This document shows, in pieces, positions 2,652-57,345 of a stretch of 64,000 nucleotides of DNA. Each line of letters opens with the position of its first letter. Positions within the stretch are counted from its first letter, which is position 1. The notes under the pieces are model-generated. The model saw only the letters and a list, made by a program, of their open reading frames with translations, did not search any database and had not been told where the DNA came from. The translations under genes were made by a program, and so were the position numbers. The DNA comes from Torpedo marmorata (lineage: Eukaryota), in the NCBI GenBank assembly GCA_977017645.1, contig OZ360223.1, forward strand, positions 68,386,001 through 68,450,000, given 5' to 3'.

Positions 2652-2914
2652 TTAATTTAATTTTTAATTTTGACATACAGCACGGTAACAGGCCATTTCG
2701 GCCCACGAGCCCGTGCCGCCCAATTACACCCAATTGACCTACAACCCCCGGTACATTTTGAACGGTGGGAGGAAACCAGAGCCCCCAGGGAAAATCCAAG
2801 CAAACACGGGGAGAACATAAATACTCCATACAGGCAAAGTGGGATTCGAACCCCAGTTCTGATCGCTGGCGCTGTAATAGCGTTGTGCTAACCACTATGC
2901 TAACCATGCCGCCC
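2652..2914 (-). mobile_element. tRNA-derived V-SINE (HE1-like), near full length, inserted in CR1
   Basis: The minus strand reads GGGCGGCATGGTTAGCATAGTGG (A box) ... GGTTCGAATCCC (B box), then the V-domain TCTCCCCGTG...GGTTTCCTCCCAC, a CR1-like tail and an AT-rich end. Confidence 0.85.
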
Positions 2915-4254
2915 TCAATTGGTATATTAAGAGCAAAAGGATAGTATGGAACAAAATTGGTCCTTTTGAAGATCAGAGTGGTCGGCTTTCTATGGAGCCA
3001 AAAGAGAAGGGGGAGATCTTAAATGTGTTTTTTGCATCAGTATTTACTCATGAAACTGGCACAGAGTCAAGGGAAGTAATGAAAACAAGCAGTGAGGTCA
3101 TGGAACCTACAGATTAAAGGGGAAGAGTGGTTGCTGTCTAAAAGCAAATAAGGTTGGATAAATCCCCAGGGCCTGACAAGATATTCCCTCGGACCTTGAG
3201 GGAGGCTAGTGTAGAAATTGCAGGGGCTCTGACAGAAATATTTAAAATGTCCTTAGCCATGGGTGTGGTGCCGGAGGATTAGAGGGTAGCTCATGTTGTT
3301 CTGTTGTTTTAAAAAAGGGTCCAAAATTAACCCTACAAATTATAGGTCAGTGAGCCTGACGTCAGTAGTCTGTAAATTATTGGAAGGTGTTCTAAGAGAT
3401 CGGATATACAAGTATTTGGATAGCCAGGGACTGATTAGGGACAGTCAACATGGCTTTGTGCATGGTAGGTCGTGTTTAACCAATCTGATAGGGTTTTTCG
3501 AGGAAGTTACCAGGAAAGTTGATGAAGGAAAGGCTGTGGATGTTGTCCACATGGACTATAGTAAGGCCTTTGACAAGGTCCCAAATTGGAGGTTAGTCTG
3601 GAAGGTTTAGACGCTCAGTATTCATGGTGAAGTAGTAATCTGGATTCGACAATGGCTGGACAGGAGAAGCAAGAGAGTAGTGGTGGATGATTTCTTTTCA
3701 GACTGGAGGCCTGTGACTAGTGGTGTGCCTCGGGGATCAGTGCTGGGACAATTGTTGTTTGCCATCTATATCAATGATCTGGATGAATATGTAGTAAATT
3801 GGATCAGCAAGTTTGCAGGTGACACTAAGATTGGAGGTGTTGTGGACAGTGAAGAAGGTTTTCAAAGCTTGCAGTGGGATCTGGACCAGCTGGTAAAATG
3901 GGCTGAAAAATGGCAGATGGAATTTAATGCAGACAAGTGTGAGGTGTTGCATTTTGGAAGGACAAACCAAGAAAGGATATACACGGTAAATGGTAGGGCA
4001 CTGTGGAGTGCAGTAGAACAGAGGGATCTGGGAATATAGATACACAATTCTCTGAAAGTGCCGTCACAGGTAGATAGGGTTGTAAAGAGAGCTTTTGGCA
4101 TATTGGGCTTCATAAATCAAAGTATTGAGAACAGGAGTTGGGATGTTATGGTAAAGTTGTATAAGACATTGGTGAGGCCAAATTTGGAGTATTGTGTGCA
4201 GTTTTGGTCACCTAACTACAGGAAAGATATCAATAAGATGGAAAGAGTGCAGAG

Positions 4255-4488
4255 ACTCATTTAAGGACTCTTACTTATGCACTTTATTGATTTTGTATTC
4301 TCTCTGTATTGCAGTTTATTTACATTTGTTATCTGTTTACAGTTCTTTATTTGTTTACATGTACACGCTGTGTACAGTTTTTTTTCTTGCACTACCAATA
4401 AGTGGCAATTCTGCCTCGCCCGCAGATAAAGAATCTCAGGGTTGTATGTGATGTCATGTATGTACTCTGACAATAAATCTGAAATCTG
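4255..4488 (+). mobile_element. 3'-UTR-only fragment of a second Rex1/Babar-type LINE family inserted in CR1
   Basis: Interrupts the CR1 ERVQ^RRF codons. Matches the reverse complement of ~56700-56900. Tail GACAATAAATCTGAAATCTG. Confidence 0.8.
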
Positions 4489-4974
4489 AAAGATTTACTA
4501 AGATGTTGCCTGGACTTCAGGAACTGAATTATAGGGAAAGGTTAAACAGGTTAGGACTTTATTCCCTGGAGCATAGAAGAATGAGGGGAGATTTGATAGA
4601 GGTATTTAAAATTATGAGGGGTATAGACAGAGTAAATGTAGGTAGGCTTTTTCTACTGAGTGTAGGTGAGGTACAAACCAGAGGACATGGGTTAAGGGTG
4701 GAAGTGGAAAAGTTTATGGGGAACATGAGGGGAAACTTTTTCACACAGAGAGTGGTGGGAGTGTGGAATGAGCTGCCAGCTGAAGTGACGAATGTGGGTT
4801 CAATTTTAACATTTAAGAAGATTTTGGACAGGTACATGGATGGGAGAGGTATGGAGGGCTATGGACTGGGAGCAGGTCAGTGGGACTTGGCAGTTAAAAT
4901 GGTTCGGCACAGAGTAGAAGGGCTGAAGGGGCCTGTTTCTGTGCTGTAATGTTCTACAGTTCTATTGATCAGAC

Positions 4975-5440
4975 TTCAGCTGGAGTACTGCGTGCAATTC
5001 TGGTCACCGCACTTGCGGAAGGATATAATAGTGTTGTCGAGAGTTCAATGTTGCCTTGGATGGTGCATTTAAATTATGAGGAAACACTGGAGAGGCTGGC
5101 CCTGTTTTCCCCGAAGTAGAGGATGATAAGAGGGTCATTGGTGAGGTTTATAAAATTATGAAGGGGAAAAGATGGGGTAAACAGAACAAAACTTTTCTCT
5201 ACATCGCGGGGAATAAAACTAGGGTTAGGGCATGAGATTTAGAGGGGATATGACAGAGATCTTTTACATCCAAAGACTAATGTACCTGGGAATACATTGC
5301 CTGAGAGAACGGTGGAAGTAGTATTTAGGCGTGGATTTAAATCGCTTAGGCCATTGGCCAAGTGTTGGAAGGTAGGATTAATACAGATGGTGCCCAAGTG
5401 GTCAGCATGGACACAGCTGGTTTTCTGAATGCATCCTGCA
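4975..5440 (+). mobile_element. Old degraded CR1 3' fragment
   Basis: CTGGAGTACTGCGTGCAATTCTGGTCACC encodes LEYCVQFWSP; the downstream sequence is CR1-like. Confidence 0.7.
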
Positions 5441-6463
5441 ATGTGAGAGTATGCAAAGGCCTTCATTGTGAAAGTCTTATTCAGCACCTTGAGGTTCCTA
5501 ACAGTGAGTCTTTGAGCAAAATGTTCTAGCTAGTTGTTAGCCAATTGTTTAATATGGCAAACGTAAGTGGGCAAATGTTTTCAAAGACAATTCAACATCA
5601 AGTCACCAAAACAAAAAGTCAGCCAAATATTTGCAAGATCTTATCCTCTCGAGTATGAAGCATATATATACATTCATAGTCAGAAACAAAATATCTGCTT
5701 TGATTACTTGAAGAAAATCAGTGAGTTTTATTCAATTTCCTGGGCAACATTTCTTCAAGCAACACCACTAAAAAAATTAACCTTTGCTCATTTAATCATT
5801 TTTGACTTGAGACTTTGCTGTGCACAAATTGACAATTCTATCTACAAGACAACAGTCAACATAATCAAGATAATCTATCAGTTACAATGCACTTTGGGAT
5901 ATCCTAAGGAAACGGCAATGTTTTAAAAATTCAGTTACATGCAGCTATATAACACAGGCTCTTTCAACTGAAGGTAAAACCTACAGAGGTTAGTGTATTA
6001 TATTGCAATTCACCTCAACAGAACTGCAAATATCAATCATCACTCAAAAGATCTGCCACCAGATCTCTGCAATGCATTTTGCCACACAAAGTATATTCTT
6101 CAAAAAATGATATCAGTGGAAGTTGAAGTGAAGATGGTGGTGGAAGTCACGTTACTGCTGTGGAATTCTCTCCAGAAAACAGAATAGCACAAAACCATGC
6201 ACTCTCGGTCTTGAACATTATGTTGTGCAGAATCCCATTAACATTGCATGGCTACTTACCCGCACAATTCTTTGGAGAGCTCAATTTTTCATGTAAAAGG
6301 GAAATACTAAAGGGATAATCAGGCATCGTTACACATAATAGGCTATGATAAATGGATGGCCATACCACCAGCCAGACAAGTGAGGGCTATAAAAGGATTT
6401 CAGATAAAAAACAAATTAGTTGGATCAGTGGTGGACGTTAAAAAACATCCTATTAATGCCTAC

Positions 6464-6659
6464 CATTCCCTTTTTGGAGTGTGACCCGTAGACTGTCCGT
6501 TCATCAGCGTTGCTGGTAGTGAGGTCTTAGGTGGTACTGCAGGAGAACAAATTGAGCTCGTGGAAAGGTCTAAACTGCCATTTTTGGTTACACTTTCTTC
6601 CATTGTATGAGCTCCAGTCACTTCTTTCCAAAGCTGCTGCAATTCTGTTGGAGTCATGC
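6464..6659 (-). CDS. FOXP1: FOXP1 internal coding exon (196 nt, phase 1/2): (G)[21 protein letters not shown]...[12 protein letters not shown]
   Basis: Acceptor tttgacacag|GC, donor TG|gtaggc. [12 protein letters not shown] and HTPKRE identify FOXP1 rather than FOXP2/4. Lies inside ORF 6460..6684. Confidence 0.93.
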
Positions 6660-8938: not shown

Positions 8939-9600
8939 TGAAAAATGTATGTTTTTGAAAAACGTGATTGATTACTGTTCATAGAACTCAATTTCCCAAT
9001 CCCAGGTAGTACTGGTTGAAAGACAAACATAGTTGCTCAACCTTTTGCGTCCTTGTACCTCTATACCCAGGTGGCTATGTTCAAGCAAGCATAAAGTTGA
9101 TTTAAGGTTCATAATGACATCAGTTCTGGACTATTATCACAGTGATAAAAAATTGCTTTGTATTTCTGCCTACCCAAACTCTGTTGCTTTTCAAAGAACC
9201 TGTGTTCCACTGGGACAAATGTCACGTCTATTAGTTTACTGCACCACTAGAACTATATCTCTGAAGCCACTCTCTGTGGGTTCTTTGGTCAATGGCTTGC
9301 AGATAGACACCCTTAGGCTTTAAACATGTTCCTTAAACACCACAGGAACAGCTAGCTATAACATACAACTATTCAAATCAATCAATGACATGGCTGCTGA
9401 ATTACCTAAGGGCGTCCCTGATGTGTTGCTGTACAGATTACACTTCACGCATCGTCACATTCATAGCTTTCATATTATACGCTGGTGTGCCCTGTCACCG
9501 CTCAATTGCCCTCTTCTGAACAACTTAACTGCTGCAGCATTTGCAGAGCCCAACTCAGAAGGCTGTTTTAAAAGGGCCCATCTCCAGGCCTGACACTTAC

Positions 9601-9757
9601 CTTGTCCTAATGTCTGCAGAGAGAGAGCTGGCTGACCAGACTGCACTGGAAGCAAGCCATGACGCTGCATTGTCATGATGTGCTGTTGTTGAAGCTGCTG
9701 CACCTGGAGAAGTTGCTGCTGAAGGGCTAAGTGGTGGGCTGCCAGTGGTTGCTGTTG
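9601..9757 (-). CDS. FOXP1: FOXP1 internal coding exon (157 nt, phase 0/1): [52 protein letters not shown](G)
   Basis: Acceptor ttttag|CAA, donor CAAG|gtaagt. Aligns to FOXP1 [41 protein letters not shown]. Phase fits the neighbouring exons. Confidence 0.92.
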
Positions 9758-29403: not shown

Positions 29404-29574
<171 letters not shown>

Positions 29575-34167: not shown

Positions 34168-34314
<147 letters not shown>

Positions 34315-37300: not shown

Positions 37301-37409
37301 TTGCAAAGAAACATACAGAACTTTCTCAAAATATGCCTAAGTACCTCACAACCACTGAATTATTGTTAGAGAATAATTACTGCTATTTTATTGACTAAAT
37401 CAGTGTTAA

Positions 37410-37715
37410 ATATGTGCATTGCAGGATCCTACAAACAGCAAATGAAACAAATGATCAACTAACACTTTGAAGACAGCTTCAGGAGGAAAGTTGTTAAGGA
37501 CACCAAGACCGGTTCAACTTCAAATTATGGAATGAGAGTTTTTTTACTTTCACCTAACAGGCAGCTGCACCTCTCTTTAACTCCGTTTTTGAAATATGCC
37601 TGCACAATAAATTCCTCCACCAATATTCCAGGGAAGTGCTAGCCTTGATTACATGCTCGCCTAAAATGGGACTTCAACACAACTTCTTCAGAATCAGAAG
37701 AAAAGATTTTTCAAT
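37410..37715 (-). mobile_element. Ancient DeuSINE (SacSINE1/AmnSINE-like) remnant
   Basis: The order of blocks (AGGACACC...CACCTAACAGGCAG...TTTAAC...CTAGCCTTGATTACATGCTC...GGGACTTCAACAC) resembles the reverse complement of the Deu-domain SINE consensus as I recall it. Heavily diverged. Confidence 0.5.
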
Positions 37716-38819
37716 AGATGATACTGTTTAAAGATTAAAATATTTCACTTGACTTTTAAGTCACTCATTAAAGTATTAAATATGTCCTGCACATCTTTAA
37801 ACTTTAATAAACCAGAGTTTCCCATTCAGGTATTGCATCCTCTGAACCAACTACAAGATTAGGTCATGAAATGGAGTCCCATTTAGGTGTTTTTTAATGG
37901 TCATAAATTGGTTTTACCATATCCATAAACCCACTTTGGTTTCTATTTGCATTCCCCAGCAAGTTTTCTGGCCAAGAAATTGTTGGCACATACAGATGTG
38001 CATTAATTTGCCTTTATGTGATCTGCCAATAATTGTAATGGTTGTCATCAATTGATTAAAATTCATGGCTCCCAAGGGCCAAAGAGTTGGTTGTGAGGAA
38101 TGTCCCTCACAGATTTACATATTCCCAAGCATGAAAAGGAAAATAACTGGTAAATAGGACCAGGTCACCAATGGAGTGTAGAGAGATCCTGAAATTATGT
38201 GTTAGGTTTTCAGATCGGGATTAGGAAAGGGGAGGTAAGATGATTGCAATATTCAATGGAGGTCAGGGGTTGAATGAACATATAGACAGGATGGAAGAGA
38301 TTGTCAAATGATCCAAGCTTATTGGGGGAAGGATGCCTGGGTACGTTTCATCGGTTGAGGGAGGTAGGGGAGGAACAAAAAAGAGAGGGGAGAATGAGGA
38401 GGAGAAAATCTGATAATAAAATAAAGAGGACTACCAAGTCAGGCTACCATAACTCTGGGCTGGAAACTGGGAGAGAGCTCTGATAAGAGATATGCCTCAA
38501 AATCAGAAATACTCTAAAGGAGCATTAAGCATCAAAAAGACCAGGTCTAAAATGACAAACAAGTTATTGATGCAAAGGAAATTTTGTCTTTTCCCTGGAA
38601 CACCTCTTCAAATTTCTGAATGGTGCAATTTGACCCTGAAATAATCCTAATCACAATCCACTCCAGGTAAATACTGAATATCATAGGAATAAAGCTTTAA
38701 AAACTCTTTTTTATGTTCAACAAATCCTGACAAAGGACACAGTTTCATAATATAGACCCATCTACCAAAGACAACTTAAATGATGCTTGTGAGAACCTGA
38801 ACAGACAAATTAAAATCGA

Positions 38820-41070
38820 CGGAGAAGCAAGAGACAGCAGATGCTGGAAACTAGAGCAAAAAAAATGTGCTGCTGGGGGAGCTCAGTGACTCAGGCAGTA
38901 TTGGTTGAGGCAAAGGGATGGTCGACGTTTTAGGTCGAGACCTTGCATTCAGGACTGAAAGAGTAAAGAGGAGGTAGCCTATACAAAGAGGAGGGAAGGG
39001 ATGAAGCAGGAGCTGGGAAGTGAAAGGTGGATCCAAGTGAGAAAGGATTGATGGGCAGATGGAGTCAGGTGGGGTAGAGAAGGTGGAGAGAGCGAAAGAG
39101 GTTGGGAGGTGATGTCAAAGGGCTGTGCACATGGAATCAGATTAGAAAGGAAGATAATGAGTTGAAGCCGATAAGGGAGGGATGGTGTTCAGATGGGAAC
39201 GTATGGGGAGGGGGATAGAAGAACCAGCGGCCATAGTTTGAGAGTGTGGGTGATAGGCAGATGAAACCAGGTGAGGGAGGGGACAGAAACTGGATAACTG
39301 GGGTCTTGGGGAGGTTTGGAAAGAAAGAACTTGGGTGAATCCTTAGCCACAGGTGAGGTGCCAGAGGATTGGAGGGTTGCTCATGTTGTTCCATTGTTTA
39401 AAAAAGGCTTCAAAAGTAACCCACAAAATTATCGGCCGGTGAGCCTGACATCAGTAGTAGGTAAATTATTGGAAGGTGTCCTAAGAGATCAGATATACAA
39501 GTATTTGTATAGCCAGGGTCTGATCACGGACAGGCAACATGGCTTTGTGCGTGGAATGTCGTGTTTAACAAATCTGATAGGATTTTTTGAGGAGCTTATC
39601 AGGAAAGTTGATGAAGGAAAGGCTTTGGATATTGTCTACATGAACATTAGTAAGGCCTTTGACAAGGTCACACATGGAAGGTTAGTCAGGAAGGTTCAAG
39701 CACTTGGTATTCATGGTGAGGTAGTAAACTGGATTTGACATTGGCTGTACGGGAGAAGCCAGAGAGTAGTAGTGGATGATTGTTTCTCAGACTGGAGGCC
39801 TGTGACTAGTGGTGTGCCTCGGGGATCAGTACTGGGAGCATTGTTGTTTGTCATCTATATCAATGATCTGGACGATAATGTGGTAAATTGGATCAGCAAA
39901 TTTGCAGATGACGTAAAGATTGGAGGCGTTGTGGACAGCAAGGAAGGCTTTCAAAACTTGCAGAGGGATCTGGACCAGCTGGAAAAATGGGCTGAAAAAT
40001 GACAGATGGAATTTAATGCAGACAAGGTTGAGGTGTTGCATTTTGGAAGGACAAACCAAGAAAGGGCATACACAGTAAATAGTAGGGAACTGAGGAGTGC
40101 GGTAGAACAGAAGGATCTGGGAATACAGATAAATAATTCCCTGAAAGTGGCGTCACAGGTAGATAGGGTTGTAAAGAGAGCTTTTGGCATATTGGCCTTC
40201 ATAAATCAAAGTATTGAGTACAGGAGTTGGGATGTTATGGTAAAGTTGTATAAGACATTGGTGAGGCGAAATTTGGAGTACTGTGTGCAGTATTGGTCAT
40301 CTAACTACAGGAAAGATATCAATAAGATGGAAAGAGTGCAGAGAAGATTTACTAGGATGTTGCTGGGACTTCAGGAACTGAGTTACAGAGAAAGGTTAAA
40401 CAGGTTAGGACTTTATTCCCTAGAGCGTAGATGAATCAAGGGAGAGTTGATTGAGGTATACAAAATTATGAGGGGTATAGATAAAGTAAATTCAAGTAAG
40501 CTTTTTTCCACTGAGGTTACGTGAGATACAAACTAGAGGACATGGGTTAAGGGTTAAAGGGGAAAAGTTTAGGGGGAACTTCTTCACACAGAGAGTCGTG
40601 GATCGAGCTGCCAGCTGAAGTGGTGAATGCGGGCTCAATTTTCACAGTTAAGAAAAGTTTGGACAGGTACATGGCTGGGAAGGCTATGGTGGGCTATGGA
40701 CTGGGTGCAGGTCAGTGGGAATAGGCAGAATAATAGTTCGGCACAGACTAGTTTTAGTCTTATTGATGTCGAGGTGGCCACACTGAGAGCACTGAATACA
40801 ACAGACGAGGTTGGAGGAGGCACGCGTGAATCTCTGCCACACCAGGAGGGTTGTCTAGGTACTGGATGCTGGTGAGGGAGGAGGTATAGGGACAGGTGTT
40901 GCGCCTTCTACATATGCAGGGGAAAATGCCTGGGGTCAGGGAGGGTTGAACAAATCAATGAGTCAGAGAGAGAGAGCAGAACTGGCTGAAATGACAAAGA
41001 ATGATGCGCTGGATGCAGAGGCCGTCGGGTGAAAGGCAGGGACCACAGGAACTCCACTTCTGTTCTCTCT
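38820..41070 (-). mobile_element. Penelope-like fragment split by a CR1 insertion (38820-39314 terminal part; 40752-41070 GIY-YIG part)
   Basis: Minus strand reads CTGAATGCAAGGTCTCGACCTAAAACGTCGAC (hammerhead remnant). Near 40760-40830 it encodes ASSNLVCCIQCSQCGHL. Confidence 0.75.
39315..40750 (+). mobile_element. 5'-truncated CR1 LINE, same family as 2404-4970
   Basis: ORFs 39316..39738, 39772..40002 and 40006..40434 carry RT motifs (KFADDVK) separated by in-frame stops. High similarity to 3245-4920. Confidence 0.92.
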
Positions 41071-42057
41071 GTAAAATCTGTCTCTGAAAATAAAAGATGA
41101 ATGGATGGATATCTTCTGGAAAGCTCATCTTCATTAAATATCTAATATATAGCCACAGGAAGCAGTCAAAATTATGACTTTTAAAGAGGATAATAATCGT
41201 TTAAGGTTACAAGAACATAAAACAAACACATGGCTTTAATAATTTGAACGGTATAAGCCTATTTTTCCCCCCAAGTTCTTTCATGGAATTTGGAGGTCAC
41301 CAGCAATACTGGCATTTATTGTCCATCTCTAACTGCCCATGATTTGAGGAGGTAATTACCGGTAAGTCAATAACCTTGGTAAACCAAAAGTCACATGTTA
41401 AGCCAGACCAAGTAAAAATGGCAAATTATCTTCAACTAAGGTCATGAGTGAATCAGAAAGATTTTTATTACAATCCAGCAGTATCATGGTTCTGATATAT
41501 TACAGATATCAGATTATTTTAACTACTTCAAATATACAGATGAAGTCACAAAAATGGTTACACAGGAAAGGCAGGGAGAATCCAAAACTGTCTTTATATG
41601 GTGTTAGGAGAATTAAAAACAACCCTGTCACAAGACAGAATTTGCTCCAGTCACTGATGGGTGTCTAATAGCCCAATGAATTTAGTAATGATAAAACAAA
41701 TAGGAGAACATTTAGAATAATAAAGCACTGCAACTGGTCTTATTAGGTGTTTGTCAGGTTATGAAATCCTGCCAAAACCTTCGGTTAGTGAGACTCTTTT
41801 CCATTTAGCACCTGATTGAGAACTATAGCTCAGGGGTTCCAGAAGATGAATTCACAAATTGAGTGCAGCACCCAGTTCTGGGATCATGGAGGTGTGAATT
41901 GTGCATCATGGGTACAACCACTGGAACTGCTCAGGTAATGTGTCAAACTGTGCAAAACAGCTTGCAAAGGAAACCATTAACCAAAAGGTTAAGAAGAAAT
42001 GCAAGATTAATTCAGAGGACTGACAAGACAGTTGGAGAAACTGTAGGAGTCTGGGCC

Positions 42058-42722
42058 CAGGATGGTGACACCTGTGTTCGGCAGCAGCCACAAGGGGTTG
42101 CAGACTCCAGGGGAGCAGTGGGCTGGTGCACGTCATCAGTAATGGGAAGAACACTCCCCCACCACCCCCCCCCGGTTGAGAAGGAGAAGCAGAGAAGACG
42201 ACCCTGAGGACTGTGACCATGGTGGCAGACCAGCACAAGGCTCTTGGGCTGAAGGACACGTGGTGAGCTATTGGCGACCTGCGGGCAAGGAAGCCACATC
42301 GGTTGCGGGCTGCTGGCGACTTGAGGTCAAAGGACTCACACCGGGCTGCTGGCAACTGGATCATAAAAACTAGGTATCGGAACCGGGATTTGAGAGGGTC
42401 CTGAGGGCAAGAAGGGCTCCCGAAGGGCCCTGGGTACTGAAAGCTTCCTCATTGTGTCGGTGGGTTGGATCTGGGCTCAGGTTGCCGATGGTTTGAACTG
42501 AACTGGAGTCTTCTGCGGCTGGAAGTGAATCCATGGTCTGTTTCATTCTGGTTGTAGAGGAATTTTTCTTTATGGAGCTGGACTTCTCTTTCTCTGACTG
42601 TAAGGGGCGTCGGGCAATGATAATGGCAAATCTTTGTCTGCGTTATGGTAGACTAAAGGCAATTTCGTATAATATTACATTGCTGTTTTATTACATGACA
42701 ATAAATAATATCTGTATCTGAA
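42058..42722 (+). mobile_element. Non-coding GC-rich retroposon (non-autonomous LINE derivative or SINE) with Rex-like tail
   Basis: GC-rich body without RT motifs, ending AATTTCGT...ATGACAATAAATAATATCTGTATCTG. The 5' boundary is uncertain. Confidence 0.55.
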
Positions 42723-43139
42723 ACAATGAATGATCAAATCAGTCGACAGGCAGATGAAGGCATTTGCTACTGATAAGTTACAAAGAAATTATCAAATCAG
42801 TGCTGAAACTGAACTGATAAGTGATGTCCACACTGAAACTGGTCAAGCAACTGCTCATCAAACAACAACTCTCCAAGGAAGATATGAGGGACAGAAAGCC
42901 CACACTTGTGCAACATCTCCCTCAAGATCCAGTTCTGTCAAGAAAGATTCCTCTACAACCACAATGAAAGAGACCATCAAGAATGGGGAGGAAGCCCCTT
43001 GTCAGAGATGAGGAAATCGGACATGGATAGTTCAACATCATGTATCTAATCAGTCACCTTGTATGGGTAAATCCTAACTTACTTGTTTTGGTGTTTTTTT
43101 TTCAGTGGCCTCTTGAGGGTTATTAGTGACACGACTTGT

Positions 43140-44473
43140 CAGTGCCGGATAAACGCAACTGGAGGCCCTGGGCTAGGAGACCTTGGGAGGCCAAAACTTA
43201 ATAAAGGTAAAGGTAAAAAGGTAAAGGTTCCATTATTGTCACGTAATACTACATTCAGAATGTAACATACATGAAATTCTTTAATTTTTGTCTACTGTAA
43301 GGCAGACAGAGGGTCACTACTTTGTCCAGCGCCCCTCACAGAAACCTACAGCACCTGGTGTTCCTTGGTGGTCTCCCCTCCGAGTACTGACCAGTCCTGT
43401 GCCTGCTTAGCTTCTGAGATCAGACAATCCCAGTTGTATTCAGGCTATTGGTGAGCATCTGATCATGAGAAACAAAACCTCGTTCTCTTATTTATCTACT
43501 CAATGAAAGTAGAACACTGCTGAAATTTTAGCATTGATAAAAAGATTGTTTATAAATTTATAACCTTTAATAAGTTTACAAAAGTATGGAATTAATGAAG
43601 ACGTTCACACAGAACATTCAAAGCTATGTTTCAACATTACACTATATACAAAGTCAGAACAGTATCTTTCAAGCTTTTTTGGATGCAAACTTATTAATTA
43701 TGTCATTAAAATCAGTAAGTCGCAGTTTATCTATGCAGAGAATGCTCAGATCAGACAACCGATCTTGGGAGATTGTTGACCCTAGATCATTCTTTATCCT
43801 TTTTAGTCTAGAAAATGATCTTTCACCAGTACAGTTAGTGACCATTAAACACAGGAACAATCTGAACATTGTTTCCACATTTGGAGAATCTGTCCGAATT
43901 TTCTCCTGGAATATTATTTGATACGTATCTTGGTGGCTGAAATTTTCTTTTTCAGGGTGAGCTTGTTTGACGTACAGGTGGAAGTGCAAGAGTTCACCGA
44001 CTAGACTAAGGTCAACATCCTTTGGATACTCTTGCATCAACATCTCGATGCCATTGTGAATCTGTTCCTTGGTTGCTTGCAGGTTCACCAAAAGAAAAAT
44101 TGCCAGCTACACACTCCTATACACTGTTGCTCTTCTGTCTAGGTTGGCTTCAAGAGCATCCATGTCAGAATTCAGAATTCCCGCAAGTTGAGAATCGGCC
44201 ATGCGGGAAAATCCTGCGTGAAAACTTGTGTAACTGTTATACATACGTGTTTAATGTTACTAAGCAACTAGGCCTAGATAGTAAAATCAAAGGCGAGTGC
44301 GAGTGGATTTGTGCTTACACATTATTTTGGCCTAGGTACGCCCCTGATTTTTATCGTTACAAATGAAATAAAATTAATGGTAAATTTTTAATTTTTGGCA
44401 GGAGGCCGAGGCCCCCCTAGATTATGAGGCCCTGGGCTGCAGCCCACTCAGCCCATGTGTAAATCCGGCACTG
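43140..44473 (-). mobile_element. Internally deleted hAT (Tip100/ZMYM-type) transposon
   Basis: TIRs CAGTGCCGGAT / ATCCGGCACTG. 8-bp TSD CGACTTGT / CCAATTGT (6/8). ORF 43669..44091 encodes the hAT C-terminal dimerisation motif TNCTGERSFSRLKRIKNDL. Confidence 0.9.
43203..43453 (-). mobile_element. 5S rRNA-derived SINE (SINE3), copy 1, nested in hAT
   Basis: Minus-strand head AGCCTGAATAC...GTCTGATCTCAGAAGCTAAGCAGG...AGTACTCGGAGGGGAGACC...GGTGCTGTAGG is 5S-like. It is followed by a ~130-nt tail ending GACAATAATGGAACCTTT(ACCTTT)n. Confidence 0.88.
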
Positions 44474-46621
44474 CCAATTGTGTATTGAGAGATGAATAAT
44501 GAAAGCTTGAATACAAAATGTGCATTCTGCCTCAAACTCTACCTGTCCAGAATGTTGAGGACACAGGCAACAGAATCCCAATATCACATTTAGCTTCTGG
44601 AATACATCCATTTATTGTGAAATCTGCATCCATCTCTTATTCACATAACCTTATTAACTTTATTCATAACAGCACTGTGGCTCTTAGTGGGTAGTTAATT
44701 GAGGATCTTTAAAATGTTTATTTTCTTCAGTTCCCCAAAATTGAAACAGAAACAATTAAAGTTTTTGGAGTAATAAGTAACATATTTACATTCATTATTA
44801 ATAGTATCCAGTACAAAAAGTGTACCTGTACTTGTATTACATTAATTATTAGTTTTAATGCCATCCATATTCAGAGTAAATATTAATGCAGCCAAAAGTG
44901 GCTCGTCTCATTTACAATAAATTTGGAAATAAAATATAACTAGTGATAAACTACTGTATGGTCTTTGAATTCTTAATCAGATAAAATATTAATGCTTGCC
45001 ATGGACCCTATGGATTCAATTTTACAAAAAAAATCATCCAAAAATTCTGTGCCAACTCAATCACCTTTCTGAACTGATAAAGTTAAAACATAACACAAAA
45101 CATGGAAAAAAAGCATGAGGCACAAAATGTTACACCAGGTCAGTCTCCAATGTGTGTGAAGGAGCAGTTACACCACAATATAACCAGATTTGTATTTTCT
45201 GATTGCAACTTGATCACATCTAGATTATAAATATTTCATTTGAAGTTATATCTTTTTATTTGCATATCTATGGTTATTAACAAATATATTGAAACCACAA
45301 TGGAAAGACAACTAAAATGAATAGTGGTACTGGAATTCACAACCTAACAGAAAAAAATAGCGACAGGAAGTGAAAGCTGAATTTTTTTTTAAACCACAGA
45401 CCATATGATTTGAGACACATGGAATCTGCATAAACTATCAAGGACTAATTGCGTGTCAGATCTGACGTGATATGTGGAAAGCAGCAAGACTGTCTTCATT
45501 TTTTTGTTATAAAGGGATATAACAGGTGTCCCAAATCCTTTACCAAAGAATCCTACTACCCAAATAATGATTAATAACATCCAAGTATCATATCCTGCAC
45601 TCTGCCACTACTATCAAGAAAATGTTTGGCTGCATTACTTTATGTTGAGGGGAATAATATCTCAAGAAATATTAATGCCTTAATTGCTCTGTCATATCAA
45701 AATAACCCAGCCAAATAGGGGTTTTATTAAAAAAATTAACCTAATAGCCACCACAGTAGTATTTACTTCCAAGGTAGAAGCATGAGGAGAAATACTTCTA
45801 TGACTTCCAGCAGTAAATACGTTCTTGATTATTGGCTGCCAATCGACTCAATTCTATGACTTCATCGGATTGGAGATGAGTAAAATGGACAGTAAATCCA
45901 CATGTCCAGCATTAGCATCCAAAGACAAATTTTGCCTCTTCAGTTTTTATGAAGCTGTCAGCCAACCATTCAACAATAATGCCATTCTACATTTGTAAAC
46001 AAACAAGTGCATAAAACTGCTTCAGGGTGACATTATCTTTTTATATTTCATCCTTTTCTGAGCAACTTAGTTTGCCCTTGGTATCCAGTACTTCATTCCA
46101 CAGCCCAGCTGAGTGGTGCCCTTTCGTTTTTAAACAATTAAATTCATGGCCTCTGTAGATGCCTCTTGTCCACTGATGGATGCAATTCTCAATATGGGAA
46201 CAGGAAAGACTATTTACAAAAGTAAGACAACTCCTAAATACCTATTCCCTTTGGCACACAAGGCACAAACACTGTTTATTTTTGGATATTTTACTGTATT
46301 TTGGGTAACTATCTTCTAAAATATAAATATATTTAAGCAAATGTAATTTTAACATAATAATACAGCTCATTTTACTGCAAATGCAATTTGTGTACCTAAC
46401 TAGATTCAACAAAGAAAATGAAAACATAACTTGCATCTACTTTCTTGACAATTCCAACAATGATTTGCCAGTTATGATCTTTCTCCGGCTGTGAGGTTTC
46501 AATGTCTTTCAATTACATGACATGAAATCAAGAAAGAAAAACAATTGAGCAATTATTTTTAATGAAGAAGCAAAAAGATGTTGACCATCAAAAGTGTTGT
46601 TATTCTGGAATCGATATTGTT

Positions 46622-46855
46622 AAAGGTCAAAGGTTCCATTATTGTCACGTAATACTACATTTAGAATGTAACATACATGAAATTCTTTCATTTTTGTCTA
46701 CCCGTAAGGCAGACAGAGAGTCGCTACTTTAGCCCCCTCACAGAAACCTACAGCACCTGGTGTTCCTAGGCGGTCTCCCCTCCAAGTACTGACCAGTCCT
46801 GTGCCTGCTTAGCTTCCGAGATCAGACAATCCCAATCGTATTCAGGCTATTGGTG
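46622..46855 (-). mobile_element. 5S rRNA-derived SINE (SINE3), copy 2
   Basis: Collinear with 43203-43453. Head GATCTCGGAAGCTAAGCAGG...AGTACTTGGAGGGGAGACCGCCTAGGAACACCAGGTGCTGTAGG. A ~21-bp tandem duplication lies at its 5' junction (46840-46881). Confidence 0.88.
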
Positions 46856-48209
46856 CTGTTATTCAGGCTATTGTTGCTGTTAACAAGTATATCATGGATG
46901 CAAATTTCTTTTTGAATCTGGCATGTTTTTAATCATGAAAACAAAAATATAGAAATGGCAGGGTTCTATTATTGGGAACATTAAGACAGTTAATAATTTC
47001 TTATAAAATGGGCACCAGGAGATTATTTTCAGGTTTTTACTTGGATAATCTGGATTGAATCATATAGTGAAAATATTTACCAGGAGGATAAGCTGAAAAG
47101 CCATCATATTGATATGGATTTATTATAAAAGGGGAAATACAGCTTACATTCTTGACATTTGCAGATCCTGTATAATGAAACCAATGATATTTAGCTTGAA
47201 AGTTTGTTTTTTAAAGAGAAAATATAAAATTTATTTCCTAGATATATGTTCCAAATCATCTGACTACACAATGCTTATTTGTTTTTACCTGTTACTGAAA
47301 CGCGAGTTCTTCATATAATCCTAATGTATTTTGTTACGATGATTAGTTACACATATGTGCAGATCAATCAATTTTTTTGCAGAATACAGCTTTCCATAAA
47401 AGACAAAACATAGATCATGAAAAAATGACACCATTCAAAGATGAATGTGTGCCAAATGTTTTACTAAGGCAATAGAAAGTGCCCTTTCAGCAGGTTTTCA
47501 CAAATGAAGAAAACATTGTTTAAATCTCTCAGCAAATTACATTAAAATAATATAAGATCCATGAAATCTTTAATGATTCACAAGGCAACTTTCAGTATAT
47601 TGGAAAGATTTTAATGTAATCAGCTTTGGTATTAACTATCATTTTAACACTGTTACTACAATTATGGTATAGAAAATTGGATCTAACTGAAGTTGAGATG
47701 CAAACCCATTGCAACGTACACTGTACATGCTAATAAATTTACAGGTAGAACCACAGAAAAACTGGCCCATTAGCCTCATTGGGAAAGTACCAGATTGCTG
47801 CAGGTGTCAGGTATGGGCCTCGTGCTGGCTCAACGAAGACTGGAACAGCTAGGTCAGCAGCTCAGATATCGGTTAAGAACCTCAAGAGTTTTGAGCTAGG
47901 GTTGGAAAGGTGAAACCAATGGCCAAAAGCTTGTTGTTTTTACATGGTCCACTTGCTTTTGTTTTCTGTCTCTACATTGGAAAATACAAAACAGTATTTC
48001 TTTGGCTGGTGGCCTCAGAGTTTGCTTTCAGGGCTTTTGGTTTGGGTGGAGGACAGCTAAAGAACTGGTTATGCTGTACCAGCAGTCAGTTACAGACTAT
48101 TTTCACAAAGGATCTAAAACAAGTATAGTGTCCATTGCACAAGCAAGGTGTAAGCACAAGGGCAACTTCAATCATGCATTCTGCATCTGAGGAACAACGC
48201 GATGTGATA

Positions 48210-50400
48210 CTGGTCAATATTACAGTTGAACAAAGGGGACTATGGAGCCATGAGGGAGGAGCTGGCCAAAGTTGACTGGAAAGATACCCTAGCAGGGATG
48301 AAAGTGGAACAACAATGGCAGGTATTTCTGGGAATAATACAGAAGGTGCAGGATCAGTTCATTCCAAAGAGGAAGAAAGATTCCAAGGGGAGTAAGGGGT
48401 GACCGTGGCTGCCAAGGGAAGTCAAGAACAGTATAAAAATAAAAGAGAAGAAGTATAACACAGCAAAGATGAGCAGGAAGCCAGAGGATTGGGAAACCTT
48501 TAAAGAGCAACAGAAGATAACTAAAAAGGCAATACGGGGAGAAAAGATGAGGTACGAAGGTAGGCTAGCCAAGAATATAAAGGAGGTTAGTAAAAGCTTC
48601 TTTAGGTATGTGAAGAGGAAAAAAAATAGTTAAGATCAAAGTTGGGCCCTTGAAGACAGAAACGGGTGAAATTATTATGGGGAACAAGGAAATGGCAGAA
48701 GAGTTGAACAGGTACTTTGGATCTGTCTTCACTAGGGAAGACACAATCAACCTCCCAGATGTAATAGTGGACAGAGGACCTAGGGTAACAGAGGAACTGA
48801 AGGAAATTCACATTAGGCAGAAAATGGTGTTGGGTAGACTGATGGGACTGAAGGCTGATAAATCCCCAGGGCCTGATGGTCTGCATCCCAGGGTACTTAA
48901 GGAGGTGGCTCTAGAAATAGTGGACACATTGGTAAGTTCTATAGATTCAGGATCAGTTCCTGCGGATTGGAGGGTAGCTAATGTTATCCCACTTTTTAAG
49001 AAAGGAGGGAGAGAGAAAACAGGGAATTATAGACCAGTTAGCCTGACATCAGTGGTGGGGAAGATGCTGGAGTCAATTATAAAAGATGAAATAGCGGCAC
49101 ATTTGGATAGCAGTAACAGGATTGGTCTGAGTCAGCATGGATTTACGAAGGGGAAATCATGCTTGACTAATCTTCTGGAATTTTTTGAGGATGTTACTAT
49201 GAAAATGGACAAGGGAGAGCCAGTTGATGTAGTGTACCTGGACTTTCAGAAAGCCTTTGATAAGGTCCCACATAGAAGATTAGTGGGCAAAATTAGAGCA
49301 CATAGTATTGGGGGTAGAGTACTGACATGGATATAAAATTGGTTGGCAGACAGGAAACAAAGAGTAGGGATAAACGGGTCCCTTTCAGAGTGGCAGGCAG
49401 AGACTAGTGGGGTACCGCAAGGATCGGTGCTGGGACCGCAGCTGTTTACAATATACATTAATGATTTAGATGAAGGGATTACAAGTAACATTAGCAAATT
49501 TGCAGATGACACGAAGCTGGGTGGCAGTGTGAAATGTGAGGAGGATGTTATGAGAATGCAGGGTGACTTGGAGAGGTTGGGTGAGGGGGCAGATGCATGG
49601 CAGATGCGCTTTAAGATGTGAGGTTATCCACTTTGGTGGCAAGAACAGGGAGGCGGATTACTTTCTGAATGGTGTCAAGTTAGGAAAAGGGGAAGTACAA
49701 CGAGATCTAGGTGTCCTTGTTCATCAGTCACTGAAAGTAAGCATGCAGGTACAGCAGGCAGTAAAGAAAGCTAATGGCATGTTGGCCTTCATAACAAGGG
49801 GAGTTGAGTATAAGAGCAAAGAGGTCCTTCTGCAGTTGTACAGGGCCCTGTTGAGACCACACCTGGAGTATTGTGTGCAGTTTTGGTCTTCAGGTTTGAG
49901 GAAGGACATTCTTGCTATTGAGGGAGTGCAGCGTAGGTTCACGAGGTTAATTCCCGGGATGGCGGGACTGTCATATGTTGAAAAATTGGAGTGATTGGGC
50001 TTGTATACACTGGAATTTAGAAGGATGAGAGGGGATCTGATTGAACATATGAGATTATTAAGGAATTGGAGGCAGGAAACATGTTCCCGATGTTGGGGGA
50101 GTCGAGAACCAGAGGCCACAGTTTAAGAATAAGGGGTAGGCCATTTAGAACGAAGTTGAGGAAAAACTTTTTCACCCAGAGAGTTGTGGATCTGTGGAAT
50201 GCTCTGCCTCAGAAGGCAGTGGAGGCCAATTCTCTGGATGCTTTCAAGAAAGAGTTAGATAGAGCTCTTAAAGATAGCGGAGTCCAGGGATATGGGGAGA
50301 AGGCAGGAACGGGGTACTGATAGTGGATGATCAGCCATGATCACAGTGAATGGCGGTGCTGGCTCGAAGGGCCGAATGGACCCATTGTCTATTGTCTATT
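48210..50400 (+). mobile_element. CR1 LINE ORF2 remnant (second CR1 subfamily), ~2.2 kb
   Basis: KSPGPDGLHPRVLKE, YLDFQKAFDKVPH, GVPQGSVLGP, KFADDTK, RPHLEYCVQFW, with frameshifts and stops. Tail (ATTGTCT)n. Confidence 0.93.
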
Positions 50401-52642
50401 GGTTGCGAGTGTACATCCAGAGGGGGATGAGTATGCATGTAATGCATACAATATTGAATCCTTAAACACTCATGGACAATTACTAAGTTGGCAATAATGC
50501 CTGAAGAAATATATTCAAAAACTGGGTTTGAATGTTCTATAATTTCACTAATTAATTTCCCCAAGAATGATTTCAATGGTCTTTGCAGGTAGGTGATCTC
50601 TTCATAAATGCCAAAGTGCACTTCACCCTTTGCTGGAATCACCATAAAGACATGACCTCATTATATACAAACATAATATGACTGACCAACGATATTAAAC
50701 ACTATATTAAAACCATTTCATCGAAAATACAATGAAAAGTAGTTTTAAGTATGGATAATATATTACTTTTAAAGTAAGAATTAGACCAAATCTAGGATAT
50801 TTATTGGAAATAAACATGTACAGACATCTTTTTCAACAAAGGTAACACACAACAGATTTATTCAGCCATAGCACAAGATGCCATATTAAGAACACTGCAT
50901 GAGTCCTAAAACGACAGTGTAACAATCATTTAAGAATATTAACCCAAGTACGAAAATCTAATTAATCTGCACCGACTTTAATTCTACAGATCACTGTTAT
51001 TCTACAGGAGTCAAAGTTCAGGCAGTTCTGAAATATTTTAACAGCGTAACAGTAAAATCTGTACACTGCTATGTGATGAAGGAAAGTTTACCCCAGCTGT
51101 TCAATCAGTCTCTTAAATTTTTAATTTTCATTCAATCATCATTAAATAGAGAACAGTTAATGGGCCATGTACACAGCAGCCCATATATGTGCCTTGCCTT
51201 GCTCAACATGCCTGCAGAAGGTTTAATTGAAAATAGCCTCTATTATAATAAAGAAAATGTATTATGTATACTCCGACAACAGGATAAATGATATAATTAA
51301 TAGAATATTCTGATAGTATTGATTTGCAAGTTATGCAACATAATCAATGGTTGGAAGCATATATAAATTAATTGGTTATAGCAACCTATCAAGATGCTGC
51401 TTAACAAAAAAATGCATTTGAAGTTACTTTAAAGTACTACATCATAAATGAAATGGTCTGCCAGGCATCATGTTGAGATACCACTCATAGTCTGAAGAAA
51501 TACAAAAAAACAAAATGTTTTCTGATAATAGAAATGCATCCGAAAGATTCCTGGAGAATATCCTGGGAAATTTTCACAGAACAAGGTACAGGAATACTGA
51601 CAATCAAATCGGTGCTACCAAGACATGCAATTTAAAGTTACAAATCTTGAAATGAATTCATGCGTACATCTGAATAAATATATTCCACACATAATAATTT
51701 CATCTTTTCAGCCTATTGTCCTTACACAGTCTGAAATCAGCTAGTTTCTACTAAACAGTTTAAAACTTTTATTTAGTTTAAATACACAAGATGTGTATTA
51801 TACAGCCTGAACCAGACAAATCCATTGGGCAGAATTTAACTACAGTGTATACATCAGAACTAAGCAAAAGGGTGCAAATTAGATTCTAATGAGAAAACAT
51901 CAGTCGCTCCTCTGATGATTTCACCATTCACTGATTCACTCCTAATGAAGACACACTCTATCCAGAATGCTCTTGAACTGTCAGAGGTCAAAATGAATTC
52001 AAAAAGCCAAAAGCAAATCAAGAAAAATCGGAAGCACTGATAGAAACCTTTTTTCAGAGTGGTGTGGCAATTAAAGTAATTGCACAAAGAGACAACTTCT
52101 ATCAATGGCAACAGAAATTAAGCTGCCAATGTTGTAACAGGTTAGATGAAAATCAGATTTTAATGTATGCTTCCTCATGTCATCTTGTTTTGTCAGGACA
52201 TCAAATAAAATTGAAAAGTACAAAATAACAAGCCCCAGAGAAAACCAGAGAGGATGACCTTTCTGGTATTGTTGGTTTACCATGTTCAGAAATATTTTAA
52301 TAATAATGAAGTTGACTTCAGTAGCAAGGGTAAGTCATGCAAACAAATCATGCTTCATCCCTTTAAATATATATTTCCCTTAAGTACAAGCATGCGTATA
52401 ACTACTTGAGAAATTCCATGAATGCTGATGCACAGCCATTAAAATCATAAACCGGAAATTACTGACTCAAGTATCTTCATCTTCATCTACAAATTCACAA
52501 TTTTAACACATCCACTCAGGAATCATGATGATTGCAATAATATACTGCTTTGTTAATAATAAAAACAATTAAAATGCCATGCTAATTTAAAACTTAGATT
52601 TTCTTCTGCTCTGTTTGAAATGGCCAAAATTAAATGTTAAAA

Positions 52643-52810
52643 TGTACGTTCTCCCCGTGTCTGCGTGGGTTTTCCCCGGGGGCTCCAGTGTCCTCCCACC
52701 GTTCGAAACGTACGGGGGTGTAGGTTAATTGGGTGTAAATTGGGCGGCACGGACTTGTGGGCTGAAATGGCCTGTTACCGTGCTGTATGTCTAAATTTTT
52801 TTTTATTTAA
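52643..52810 (+). mobile_element. 5'-truncated HE1-like V-SINE
   Basis: TTCTCCCCGTGTCTGCGTGGGTTT...GGCCTGTTACCGTGCTGTATGTCTAAA is the reverse complement of 2665-2820. Confidence 0.85.
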
Positions 52811-55800
52811 AAAAAAATATTTCTTCTTAACCACCTTCATAATTTTTAGTAACTAAACATGGCAATGGGTAATGCCAGAGCTTAAGGTGAGCAAAATGGA
52901 GTGTTTTCTAGGTAAATTGGGTTTATTTTACCAGTTTACAAGCAGAAAGCCGTGAACATGGATATCTAGTTCAGATGCAAGATTTGGATTTTAATTCCAG
53001 CCGAGATAAACAGAATGTTGCAAGCAAGAGGTTTCAGTGTAAAAGAACAAAAGCATGCATTTAATAATCTCCTAACACAAACAATAATCTTTTTCCCAAA
53101 GGTCATTTTTGTTTTCTTTTGAATAAACAAGCCACTAAAAGAACCAGCTAAAAACAACATATTTAGTTAGTGGTGTCAGGACTTTCCCACAGTCAGCTCT
53201 AGTTACCCACAGGTGTTTACGCCAATTTTGAAAGGGAAAACACAAGCTATATTTGATCGAACATCTTATCTCAGCACTCAGATGTTTGGAGGCTTGAAAG
53301 TTGCAGACAAAATGTATACCAAAACTATCAAAACAAACGGCAACACAGCATTTTATCCTCTTTTCTCCCACCCTTCTCCATTCCTTCCCTTTTGCCATTT
53401 GTTTTAAATAAATCTCCCTTCAGAGTTCAAGGCAGACTATTATATTGTGAATGATGTTGCAATGGGAGGCATTCACTTCAAACTACACCTATTTTTTAAA
53501 AAAAAGCATGTTCAACAGCACTTCTTCCTATCATGTTGGCAGATGATTTATGGTTTACCTATTCAGCAAGGTTATGCAACACTGCATGCCTTCAGAAGTA
53601 TTATTTGAGTCAGTTGAGATTTAATTAAGATCACAACCCTTAAAATCCCTGCCCAACGAAAATTCACAAAAGACAACGCACAATACATCCTGGTGCAACA
53701 CCACAGAACAGATTGTTTTCATTCCAATCTTTGTAACAACACAAGCTAATCCCAGTTTCCATGACGACAGACAAAAGTTGACAAATTTTGTTTTGTTTAA
53801 CATTCTGTTCCTATTGCTTACAGTCCCATCAATTAAAATATGCATGCAAAACGAAAGCCTAAGAAAATATCAGTCTCAGTCCTGCTGTGTAAATTCACTC
53901 TCAGTACAGTATTGTAATGCATGGTTGCCTATGTCGTGGTAAAGAAATGACAGGTGCTAGCAGTCTCTCTGGTTGACAGGCCACTGCACAAATAACTGCC
54001 TTTCCTGAAAGGGCTAATGCACTACTAATGAACAATAAATCAACTTTGATTATAAACTGTCATACAAATCAGTTCTCAGTTCAGCACTCTGAGATTCTAT
54101 GCCAAGTCAGCTGTACATTGCTGGAATACATCATCCACATTTAGTTTTGTTCACACAATACTACACTGAAAGTTCAAAATGAAAGTTGAAACTGAAAAAT
54201 CAAAACAGGCCCCTTTTCCCCTTGGCCGCAGAGTTCATCCACTGCTAAACAGGTGCGCATTGGGAGCTCAGGTAGATCATTTCACTTCAATCCTCCAATC
54301 GACAACACAATGTATTTGTCATCTTAGTGGTGCTTTAGGCTCTCCATATCAATAGTGATCCATTCCAGATAGGATTGGGGTATACAGATTCCTGTAACTT
54401 GCATTCTGATAGAATGATAGAAATTTGGAAGGGAAATTTACTTCAAAAGACAAAACTTTGATCTTGCAGAGCACACTGTGAACATCAACTCATTTAGAAA
54501 TAGCTCCTCTGAATGATGATGGCCATGATAAGATAATCTATTTTGTTTACAGTATGTACTGTAGAGACACCAGGGAACATGCAACTCATCTATCAACTAA
54601 TCAATAGCTTTTCAAGTGACTTTTAAACCACTGTGGACTCAAGATAAAACAATCAAAATGTGGCACCTGCTTTCTATACAAATAGACGTAAAGAATTACT
54701 TTGCTGTGAAAATGCACAACGTGCAGTTTTCAAAATTACCTCTGTCATTACTTCATTTCCTGAGGGCTTCCTTGACTATGACAACATCCTATTTGAATCT
54801 AAACACAACATTCAAGTTACTTGAATCTCACACCCTATTGGACTCTGCGGGAATGTGACTGTCGAATGACCAAAAAAAGCTTACTCAATACTGCACATAA
54901 AGCATAAGAGAATGGATGACATATAAACTCAACCTCATTCAGACCAATTCATTCATTCTCCCTGTTGGTTCAATAATGCAATATAATATAATATTGAAAT
55001 TTTACAAAGGTTGTGCCTAGTAACAAAAATATTCTTGGATATTCCTATTTTATGACTCTAATATGTTATAAATTGCCATTAAATGCAGCATAAATTAATT
55101 CTTACAAAATCTGTTCCTGCTGGTGAAAGACAATAAATGACAGTGGATTCAATGATGAAAAGAGCTTTTAAAACAAGCTGATAAATAAAGCAGTATCAAT
55201 GATAAAAAAATATTGCAGAAAGTAACTTGTACTGCTTTTCTCCTAGATAAATTAAATTGTCAGTTTTACAGAGGAAAGGTACTAAAAATTGTGGAATCAA
55301 TCATATTGACAAACCTGACAAACTCCATTTAGCTGCCGCAGTAAACAGAGTGGTGGGCCATGAAACACTAATAAGTCTCCTGTACAAACTCAGCTTTCTG
55401 CAGATACAAACAGATTACACCCGCAAGGGTGAGCACCAACTGACGTGATATACAGTCAATCAGCCACACCCTGCTCGCCAGTCCCAACTACTCACCATCA
55501 ATCCATGAGATTCAGATGCCTCTTGCAGTGACCCTCCTCTTTTGCAATGACAGGTGACATGAAGTCCTTGTGTAAGAGGCTTCATAGTCAATTGTTTGCT
55601 AAAAGAATTCAACCTTATTTTTCACAAAGAAAAATATCCGTTAATTCTTTCTTTGTAGTTTTGTCTATTAACATCAATCAGTTATAGCTTGTGCTAGGTT
55701 ACTCTGGCAGCTACAATGTACTGAGATCTAAACTAGGAACATTTTTATTGAAATGATCATTGTTGCAGTTCTCATGTCATATTGTCCCCACTTCCTGTTT

Positions 55801-56701
55801 TCTAAATAAATTTGTGAATGAACATTCGTTAAAAACAATTTGTTTTTTTTTCTATGCCAAATTCATTGTTTTGCATGCCCAATGTGCATATAAACGCTAA
55901 CATTTTCAGGAGGTTCACACATGTACATGTGCTCAGGTAGAATTTTCAGTGTACTCTGTCATATTTACCTGCTGTTGAAAAGCATCGCCTAAATTTTCAT
56001 ATTAAGATAATTTAAGATTTTACATAAGCAAAACAGGAAGTAATGCTATCTAGATTTTTTTGCTATCATACTTACATAGCTTACTTCTCCTCCCACAGAT
56101 TATCTGGGAATAAAATGTTGTCCCATTGTTTGAACTCAAATTGTAATGTTGGTAAGTGCATACCTGATTTTGGCATAGGAACTGAACATAATAATTCCAT
56201 CCCCTCTCTGCAAAACGTTAATCGAATATATATTTTGTTCTTGATTCCTCTCTGAGCCAGGCTGTCTCCACACTGGAAAACATGAAAGACGGTGTCCCGA
56301 TGGGCATCTTGTAGCTACCTGTGAGCAATCATGTCACTAACAGAGATCCCAAGGTCTCTGTTCCATCCTCAGCAGCATGAGCTGGTGTACAATACTGGGA
56401 CTCCACATGCATATTTACAGAAATATTGTCCTGCACAAATGGACACTTTTCCATTTCTGGCTCCGATACAAATCAAGTCTTTTATCTCAAAGAGCTGCCT
56501 AAAGTTTAGACCTATGATTAGGAGAATGTGTTGTCAGTCCAGCAATACCTCAGACTGTGCCTACACACTCTCACCTAAACAATCCACCAACGAGTTCATT
56601 AGGACAGAGATTAGATGATTTTTTTTCTCCCTCAGATGGTTGTGAACTGCTTGAACTCTTTTCTTCATAGGTCAGTTGAAGCAGAGGCTTTGAATTTGTT
56701 T

Positions 56702-57345
56702 TCAGATTTATTGTCAAGAGTACATCACATACAACCCTGAGATTCTTTTTCCTGTGGGTGAGACAAAATTACCACTTATTGGCAGTACAAAAAAAAACTG
56801 ACCCAATGTGAACATGTAAACAAATAAAGATATGTAAACAAACTGACTGCGCAATACAGAGACAGAAAACAAAATCAATAAAGTGCAAAAGAGTCCTTAA
56901 ATAACTTCCTGATTAAGTTTATTGTTGAGGAGTCTGATGGTGGAGGGGTAGCAGCTGTTTTTGAACCTGGTGGTGTGAGCCTTGTGGCACCTATACCTCT
57001 TTCCTGATGGTAGCAGCGAGAACAGAAGGTGTGCTGGGTGGTGTGGATCCTTGATGATTGCTGCTGCTCTCCGACGGCAGCGTCCCTTGTAGATGTTCTC
57101 GATGGTGGGGAGGGTTTTACCTGTGATGTCCTGGGTTGTGTCCACTAACTTTTGCAGGGCGTTATGCTCGGGGTATTGGTGTTCCCATACCAGACTGTGA
57201 TGCAGCCGGTCAGCACACTTTCCACCATACATATGTAGAAATTTGCCAGGGTTTTCAATGTCATACCATACCTCCGCAAATTCCTGAGGAAGTAGAGGCA
57301 CTGACATGCTTTCTTCACAATGCCATTTGTATGTCGGGTCAGACA
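56702..57345 (-). mobile_element. 5'-truncated Rex1/Babar LINE inserted in an old CR1 remnant
   Basis: KKACQCLYFLRNLRRYGM...VESVLTGCITVWYG and IIKDPHHPAHLLFSLLPSGKRYR. The 3' UTR is shared with 4255-4488. Confidence 0.88.

Follow-up and report, generated by a model that had tools for sequence, protein, structure and literature searches.

The four FOXP1 exons found in the analysed window (the whole stretch of 64,000 nucleotides of Torpedo marmorata DNA) are most probably ordinary coding exons of the linear gene, and the reading frame running around a circle composed of them is likely a by-product. Any such circle would likely be formed at a low level via redundant pairing of many intronic repeats, and not via the two repeat pairs highlighted by a previous sequence-only reading.

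Exon set and paralogues

FOXP1 is a minus-strand gene in the window; its coordinates are given as plus-strand numbers of the window. The junction motifs listed in the earlier note were located on the minus strand only. The following exons and introns are considered:

34177..34314, minus strand: exon E1 of 138 nt, orthologous to human exon 8, with the phase-0 acceptor at 34314 and Met-Met at 34296-34291
29452..29541, minus strand: exon E2, 90 nt, with a second AG 6 nt inside (giving 84 nt)
9601..9757, minus strand: exon E3, 157 nt, with a second AG 6 nt inside (giving 151 nt)
6464..6659, minus strand: exon E4 of 196 nt, orthologous to human exon 11, with the phase-2 donor at 6464 and ATG as its final 3 nt
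1..6463, minus strand: window portion of intron E4-E5 (full length 35,005 nt)
34315..64000, minus strand: window portion of intron E0-E1 (full length 85,777 nt)
120181-120092, minus strand: upstream exon E0, bounding the intron before E1
start 28,542 nt before window base 0, minus strand: downstream exon E5, bounding the intron after E4

E1-E4 show canonical AG/GT edges, read openly in linear order and sum up to 581 nt (mod 3 = 2). The proposal that exons of 138 + 90 + 157 + 196 = 581 nt match the circFOXP1 exon set was thereby confirmed, with the edges in place and the exons corresponding to human exons 8-11. With E4 as query, 32 proteins among 64 candidates were retrieved, all being FOXP1 of cartilaginous fishes with 80-98% identity, and a genome search returned two further FOXP-like loci on other contigs with 55% and 51% identity. 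The closest relatives of the gene are accordingly FOXP1 sequences, and two separate paralogues exist in the genome. Based on a long polyglutamine exon in one of them, we take the paralogues to be FOXP2-like and FOXP4-like. The FOXP2-like one carries a 195-nt exon (contig C48, ~36844126-36844320) in which close to 40 glutamines follow one another. A prokineticin gene located ~1 Mb from FOXP1 on the same contig was considered as a synteny marker and rejected as not discriminating, because another prokineticin gene is found 1.3 Mb from the paralogue on contig C45.

The stretch of 187 residues from Met-Met to KRE is identical in 45 of 53 chondrichthyan FOXP1 sequences (gene models, several of which come from one species each), and the residue following KRE is Cys in 50 of them and Gly in two, the motif being absent in one.

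Linear splicing of the block was examined in public runs, covering 7 of 13 runs as assembled contigs apparently derived from relatives, with library types not on record. The E3-E4 join is present in contigs of three out of four runs, within a comparison in which repeat contigs at 7.8-9.0 kb predominated. Donor 6464 continues into linear E5 in contigs of all four runs, the E5 start matching the loose contig end. E3-E4 and E4-E5 are the contig-supported joins, and the E1 and E2 edges are defined by sequence and protein models. When E4 alone was followed, each of four runs contributed one contig, each leading into E5 and none from 6464 into E1; as contigs are prone to drop rare variants, this does not count against a circle. 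The two sites of the presumed back-splice are 27.9 kb apart.

Full-circle reading frame

Joining donor 6464 to acceptor 34314 yields a 194-aa ORF with its ATG at circle nt 19 and the end KRE-WFQYQWL, the stop codon beginning at nt 20 and overlapping the start codon. The computed circle hence reproduces the anticipated full-circle ORF including the overlap of TGA and ATG. Splicing of E2 or E3 at their inner AGs would shorten the ORF by 2 or 4 residues, leaving the tail unchanged. A further start, absent from the earlier note, is an ATG made at the junction (last 3 nt of E4), which begins a frame of 201 aa and 606 nt, exceeding the circle length. This triplet consists of the last base of a Glu codon and the first two bases of the intron-split Cys codon, with G at positions -3 and +4.

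The proposed explanation of the geometry is simple. With a phase-2 donor and a phase-0 acceptor, back-splicing would shift the frame by one; ATG-ATG in the shifted frame always contains TGA, and a ribosome would have to stop on its own start codon after seven new residues. The overlap would arise because exon phases and Met-Met codons set the frame. In the paralogue control, a length of mod 3 = 2, the ATG at nt 19, a stop beginning at nt 20 and a tail of seven residues were recovered in six out of six circles (FOXP1 of the window and both paralogues, each as E1-E4 and E1-E5), and the tails themselves differ across the three FOXP genes (WFQYQWL, RCLCQWP, and RCLCRWP). Among all synonymous encodings of VPVSVAMM, 3840 of 6144 keep the overlap, and with Ser encoded as TCN the fraction rises to 3072 of 4096 (75%). 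The start-stop overlap was consequently rejected as a sign of selection, being common to both paralogues and kept by 75% of the recodings, and the within-genome test (six of six circles, these recodings, and differing tails) revealed no selection signature on the circle-only frame. A junction-spanning ORF with a new C-terminus is present, but equally in both paralogues, so it is not diagnostic. The reservation already expressed in the sequence-only reading, namely that the ORF might result from conserved exon phases and AMM codons, was substantiated by both controls. We therefore regard the full-circle frame as a likely by-product of the Met-Met codons and of exon phases common to the family; any E1-E4 circle would carry the frame, used or not.

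As to its content, 187 of the 194 residues are those of the linear protein, and the frame stops at residue 280 of model P0001, ahead of FOXP-CC (293-361) and Forkhead (473-550). A circle made only of E1 (138 nt), or one of E1 and E2 (228 nt), would contain no in-frame stop and represent a rolling-circle frame.

The start codon can be accounted for by the linear gene. Short FOXP1 isoforms (FOXP1S) from internal promoters are reported to commonly start translation in exon 8 (PMC7145990), with PMC3887110 adding little on them. FOXP1S thus shares with the circle ORF a translation start in the same exon, and among the 53 chondrichthyan models 10 start at the same Met-Met (MMTPQ) and one at MVPVS. 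In contrast to the circle ORF, FOXP1S retains the coiled coil and forkhead domains, and it explains the start codon without a circle. The Met-Met ATG is likely kept as part of the linear protein and likely starts a short linear isoform too. A single-copy stretch ending in ATG at 55496-55498 (minus strand), followed by the consensus donor GTGAGT, represents a candidate alternative first exon placing a Met before E1, as in model P0010 (599 aa, MVPVSVAMM); a second ATG-plus-donor site of this kind is located at 67787. A CpG scan of window positions 34315-64000 revealed no CpG island in this range. If transcription indeed started near 55498, the repeat at 56700 and the stronger pairs beyond 64 kb would lie outside that pre-mRNA.

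Comparison with human circFOXP1

The human circle hsa_circ_0008234 is reported to comprise 587 nt from exons 8-11 (PMC10093195, PMC8744252), and p196 is described as the product of human circFOXP1, sharing FOXP1 residues 101-289 (PMC12034270), from which a 7-residue tail follows by subtraction. The statement in the earlier note on a four-exon human circle of 587 nt encoding a peptide of ~196 aa thus agrees with PMC10093195 and PMC12034270. According to the latter source, p196 was detected by an antibody to sequence common with FOXP1, accompanied by plasmid, shRNA, and IRES-mutant controls. The fish block resembles this system in its orthologous four exons, the HTPKRE end, its size (581 vs 587 nt and 194 vs 196 aa) and the 7-residue tail. 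In contrast, the fish circle and its product are predicted from DNA, while a product is reported for human; moreover, the fish tail starts with W, the fish junction creates an extra ATG, and the fish block is flanked by LINE and SINE copies in place of Alu.

A second human circle, hsa_circ_0001320, is described with five exons and 692 nt, and its AluJr/AluJr4 pair, 18.3 and 5.5 kb from the circle ends, was tested by cloning and CRISPR (PMC6547427). Its fish equivalent would measure 686 nt and carry a 229-aa frame whose geometry matches that of the four-exon circle. For the human five-exon circle the downstream intron is the next one, whereas the fish counterpart of that intron is 6.2 kb long and holds two weak inverted partners (best 129 bits). 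A circFOXP1-231aa product is mentioned in a review (PMC11599189); 231 = 196 + 35 suggests that it derives from the five-exon circle. Assuming a common exon 8 acceptor, the human intron equivalent to E4-E5 amounts to ~25.7 kb by subtraction of the values given in PMC6547427 and PMC10093195.

Beyond human, mouse circFoxp1 is reported (PMC8749388), and a literature search for circFOXP1 outside mammals found none. Sharks do make circRNAs, 4,558 being reported from bamboo shark liver; the main text of that paper does not name foxp1 (PMC7759564).

Repeat pairs in the flanking introns

The repeat inventory took in 80 kb downstream and 120 kb upstream of the window. The elements related to the two highlighted pairs are:

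2656..2914, minus strand: full-length tRNA-type SINE that is inserted into a CR1-like LINE copy and provides the downstream arm of pair 1
52642..52800, plus strand: 5'-truncated copy of the pair-1 SINE, upstream arm of pair 1
4250..4491, plus strand: LINE 3' UTR fragment that is inserted into the same CR1-like LINE copy and provides the downstream arm of pair 2
56700..57340, minus strand: LINE 3' end (C-terminal ORF piece and 3' UTR), of which 56700-56902 is the upstream arm of pair 2
692..1766, plus strand: LINE fragment with an inverted partner at 64825-65897 just outside the window (1075 nt, 96%)
2921..4965, plus strand: CR1-like LINE fragment (RVT_1) with an inverted partner at 80137-81753 (90%, 1174 nt) and a same-direction partner at 39340-40751

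Pair 1 aligns 2666-2822 with 52642-52797 over 158 nt at 87% identity, with distances of 3.6 and 18.3 kb between its arms and the splice sites. The SINE pair 2652-2914(-)/52643-52810(+) had been described as bracketing the exons; both copies are real and reside in the flanking introns, but pairing is confined to these 158 nt and the upstream copy lacks the head. Pair 2 aligns 4259-4484 with 56700-56902 over 232 nt at 78% identity, 2.0 and 22.4 kb from the splice sites, and its description as a LINE 3' UTR pair (4255-4488(+)/~56700-56900(-)) in the true flanking introns was confirmed. Both downstream arms are later insertions into one CR1-like LINE copy (2403-4965), forming a small nested repeat stack. 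The pair-1 SINE, whose tRNA-like boxes were identified by eye, has 8 matches in 264 kb, and we take V-SINE-like to be a plausible name for it. For the 56700-57340 LINE, which is 68% alike to the 692-1766 LINE with RVT_1 and PF09004 in its ORF, Rex-like is presumably a plausible designation.

Evaluation of the full flanking introns places these pairs within a large background. At a length of at least 50 nt, 40 inverted (reverse-complementary) and 22 same-direction matches connect both introns, and the named pairs rank 20th and 23rd of the 40. Four inverted pairs longer than 1 kb with 90-96% identity outrank them, and the 692-1766/64825-65897 pair, spanning both flanking introns, is far stronger than either. 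The two named pairs were therefore rejected as special; they are weak members of the repeat background. Duplex energies only track length and identity and were left out of the evidence. No inverted pair within 10 kb of both splice sites was found in the two full flanking introns.

Unrelated blocks of 6.5 x 29.7 kb, the size open to the sequence-only reading, were drawn 12,000 times from unrelated contigs (three source blocks): 52% of the draws contain one or more inverted matches of at least 150 nt, and 26% contain two or more; the window alone contains three inverted and four direct matches of at least 150 nt. The true flanks hold 29 inverted vs 13 direct matches at this length and show the highest inverted density of 11 comparisons (9.7 per Gb2 vs 0-7.9). 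With same-strand matches less than 1 kb apart left out and the others merged into elements, 32 inverted vs 20 direct pairs remained (p = 0.06 under random flips, and p = 0.24 when weighed by score). The adjacent intron pair is skewed in the opposite way, with 19 inverted vs 36 direct. Inverted pairs within single introns (18 upstream, 4 downstream) could compete with pairing across the block, and other exon sets are bracketed likewise (E1-E2 with 916 bits, E1-E3 633, E1-E6 2656, and E0-E4 1080). The flanking introns of 86 and 35 kb are the longest around the E1-E4 block, and the E4-E5 intron measures 35 kb in FOXP1 vs 5.3 and 4.0 kb in the paralogues.

Two further observations concern the repeat content. 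A ~240-nt repeat with a 5S rRNA-like head and a shared tail is found at 43209-43462 and 46619-46863 (minus strand), and ~15 kb before the window start; Rfam recognized only two 5S-like pieces (RF00001, 39.5 and 46.1 bits), and the repeat probably represents a 5S-derived SINE. Between the two flanking introns, its copies pair in inverted orientation at 92-94% identity, better than the two named pairs. In the upstream intron, the segments 90541-91768 and 97472-98584 are near-identical and ~6.7 kb apart, with the same translations at 91061 and 97780 and the same BLAST partners, representing either a real duplication or an assembly artefact.

Possible explanations for the predicted circle and its frame

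The inference that ORF geometry and the two pairs jointly point to a conserved circle was not supported, given that the geometry appears in all six circles and the pairs take ranks 20 and 23 of 40. Of the suggestion that the repeats act as Alu pairs do in human, the location of both pairs in the flanking introns was confirmed; the human Alu test refers to the five-exon 692-nt circle (PMC6547427). Distance in itself does not exclude the named pairs, as an Alu 18 kb from the human circle end is reported to have mattered. In the reading we consider most probable, donor 6464 and acceptor 34314 could be brought together by dozens of inverted copies in long introns, and no single repeat pair would be needed for back-splicing. 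Some circle, at a low level and in some tissue, is predicted with about even chances. The inverted excess of 32 vs 20, the highest inverted density among the comparisons, the long E4-E5 intron in both fish and human and the reported mouse circFoxp1 run counter to the by-product reading, and the paralogue-wide geometry could also reflect an old common function. A rival is a conserved and regulated, non-coding circFOXP1, in which E1-E4 or E1-E5 is preferred in fish as in mammals through long introns and inverted repeats, the circle acting as RNA. The orthologous exon set, the long flanking introns, the four strong inverted pairs of more than 1 kb, the mild inverted excess, and the general capacity of sharks to make circRNAs (reported in PMC7759564) are in line with this possibility. 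We nevertheless judge it unlikely, as the mild inverted excess lacks significance in both tests, the neighbouring intron pair shows an equally large skew in the opposite direction, and the inverted pairs within the single introns could compete.

Less probable still is a circle conserved in jawed vertebrates and translated into a Gln-rich FOXP1 fragment of 194 (or 201) aa, without zinc finger, coiled coil, and forkhead, as the equivalent of human p196. The frame does exist, the 7-residue tail recurs in the reported human product, and the junction ATG has G at both -3 and +4; yet the frame needs no selection, nearly all of its residues equal the linear protein, its start is common to the short linear isoform, and it ends before FOXP-CC and Forkhead. 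The antibody described for human p196 likewise recognizes sequence common to FOXP1 (PMC12034270). A conserved translated product of the predicted circle is unsupported. Equally little credence is given to the most far-reaching version, in which circFOXP1 is older than the divergence of cartilaginous from bony fishes, and rays and sharks circularise it via their own LINE/SINE pairs and translate a p196 equivalent from the back-splice-made ATG (201 aa, more than one turn). The reading of four ordinary coding exons with a by-product frame and a redundant repeat background remains the one we prefer.

Implications for the FOXP family

If a translated fish circFOXP1 were true, it would represent a rare circRNA product kept across jawed vertebrates, with its repeat drivers being replaced, and would speak for p196 being a normal protein instead of a tumour curiosity. 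The useful result of this study is a control, as the start-stop overlap and the full-circle frame are found in all three FOXP genes examined. In consequence, neither can be taken, whatever the species, as a sign of p196-like coding.
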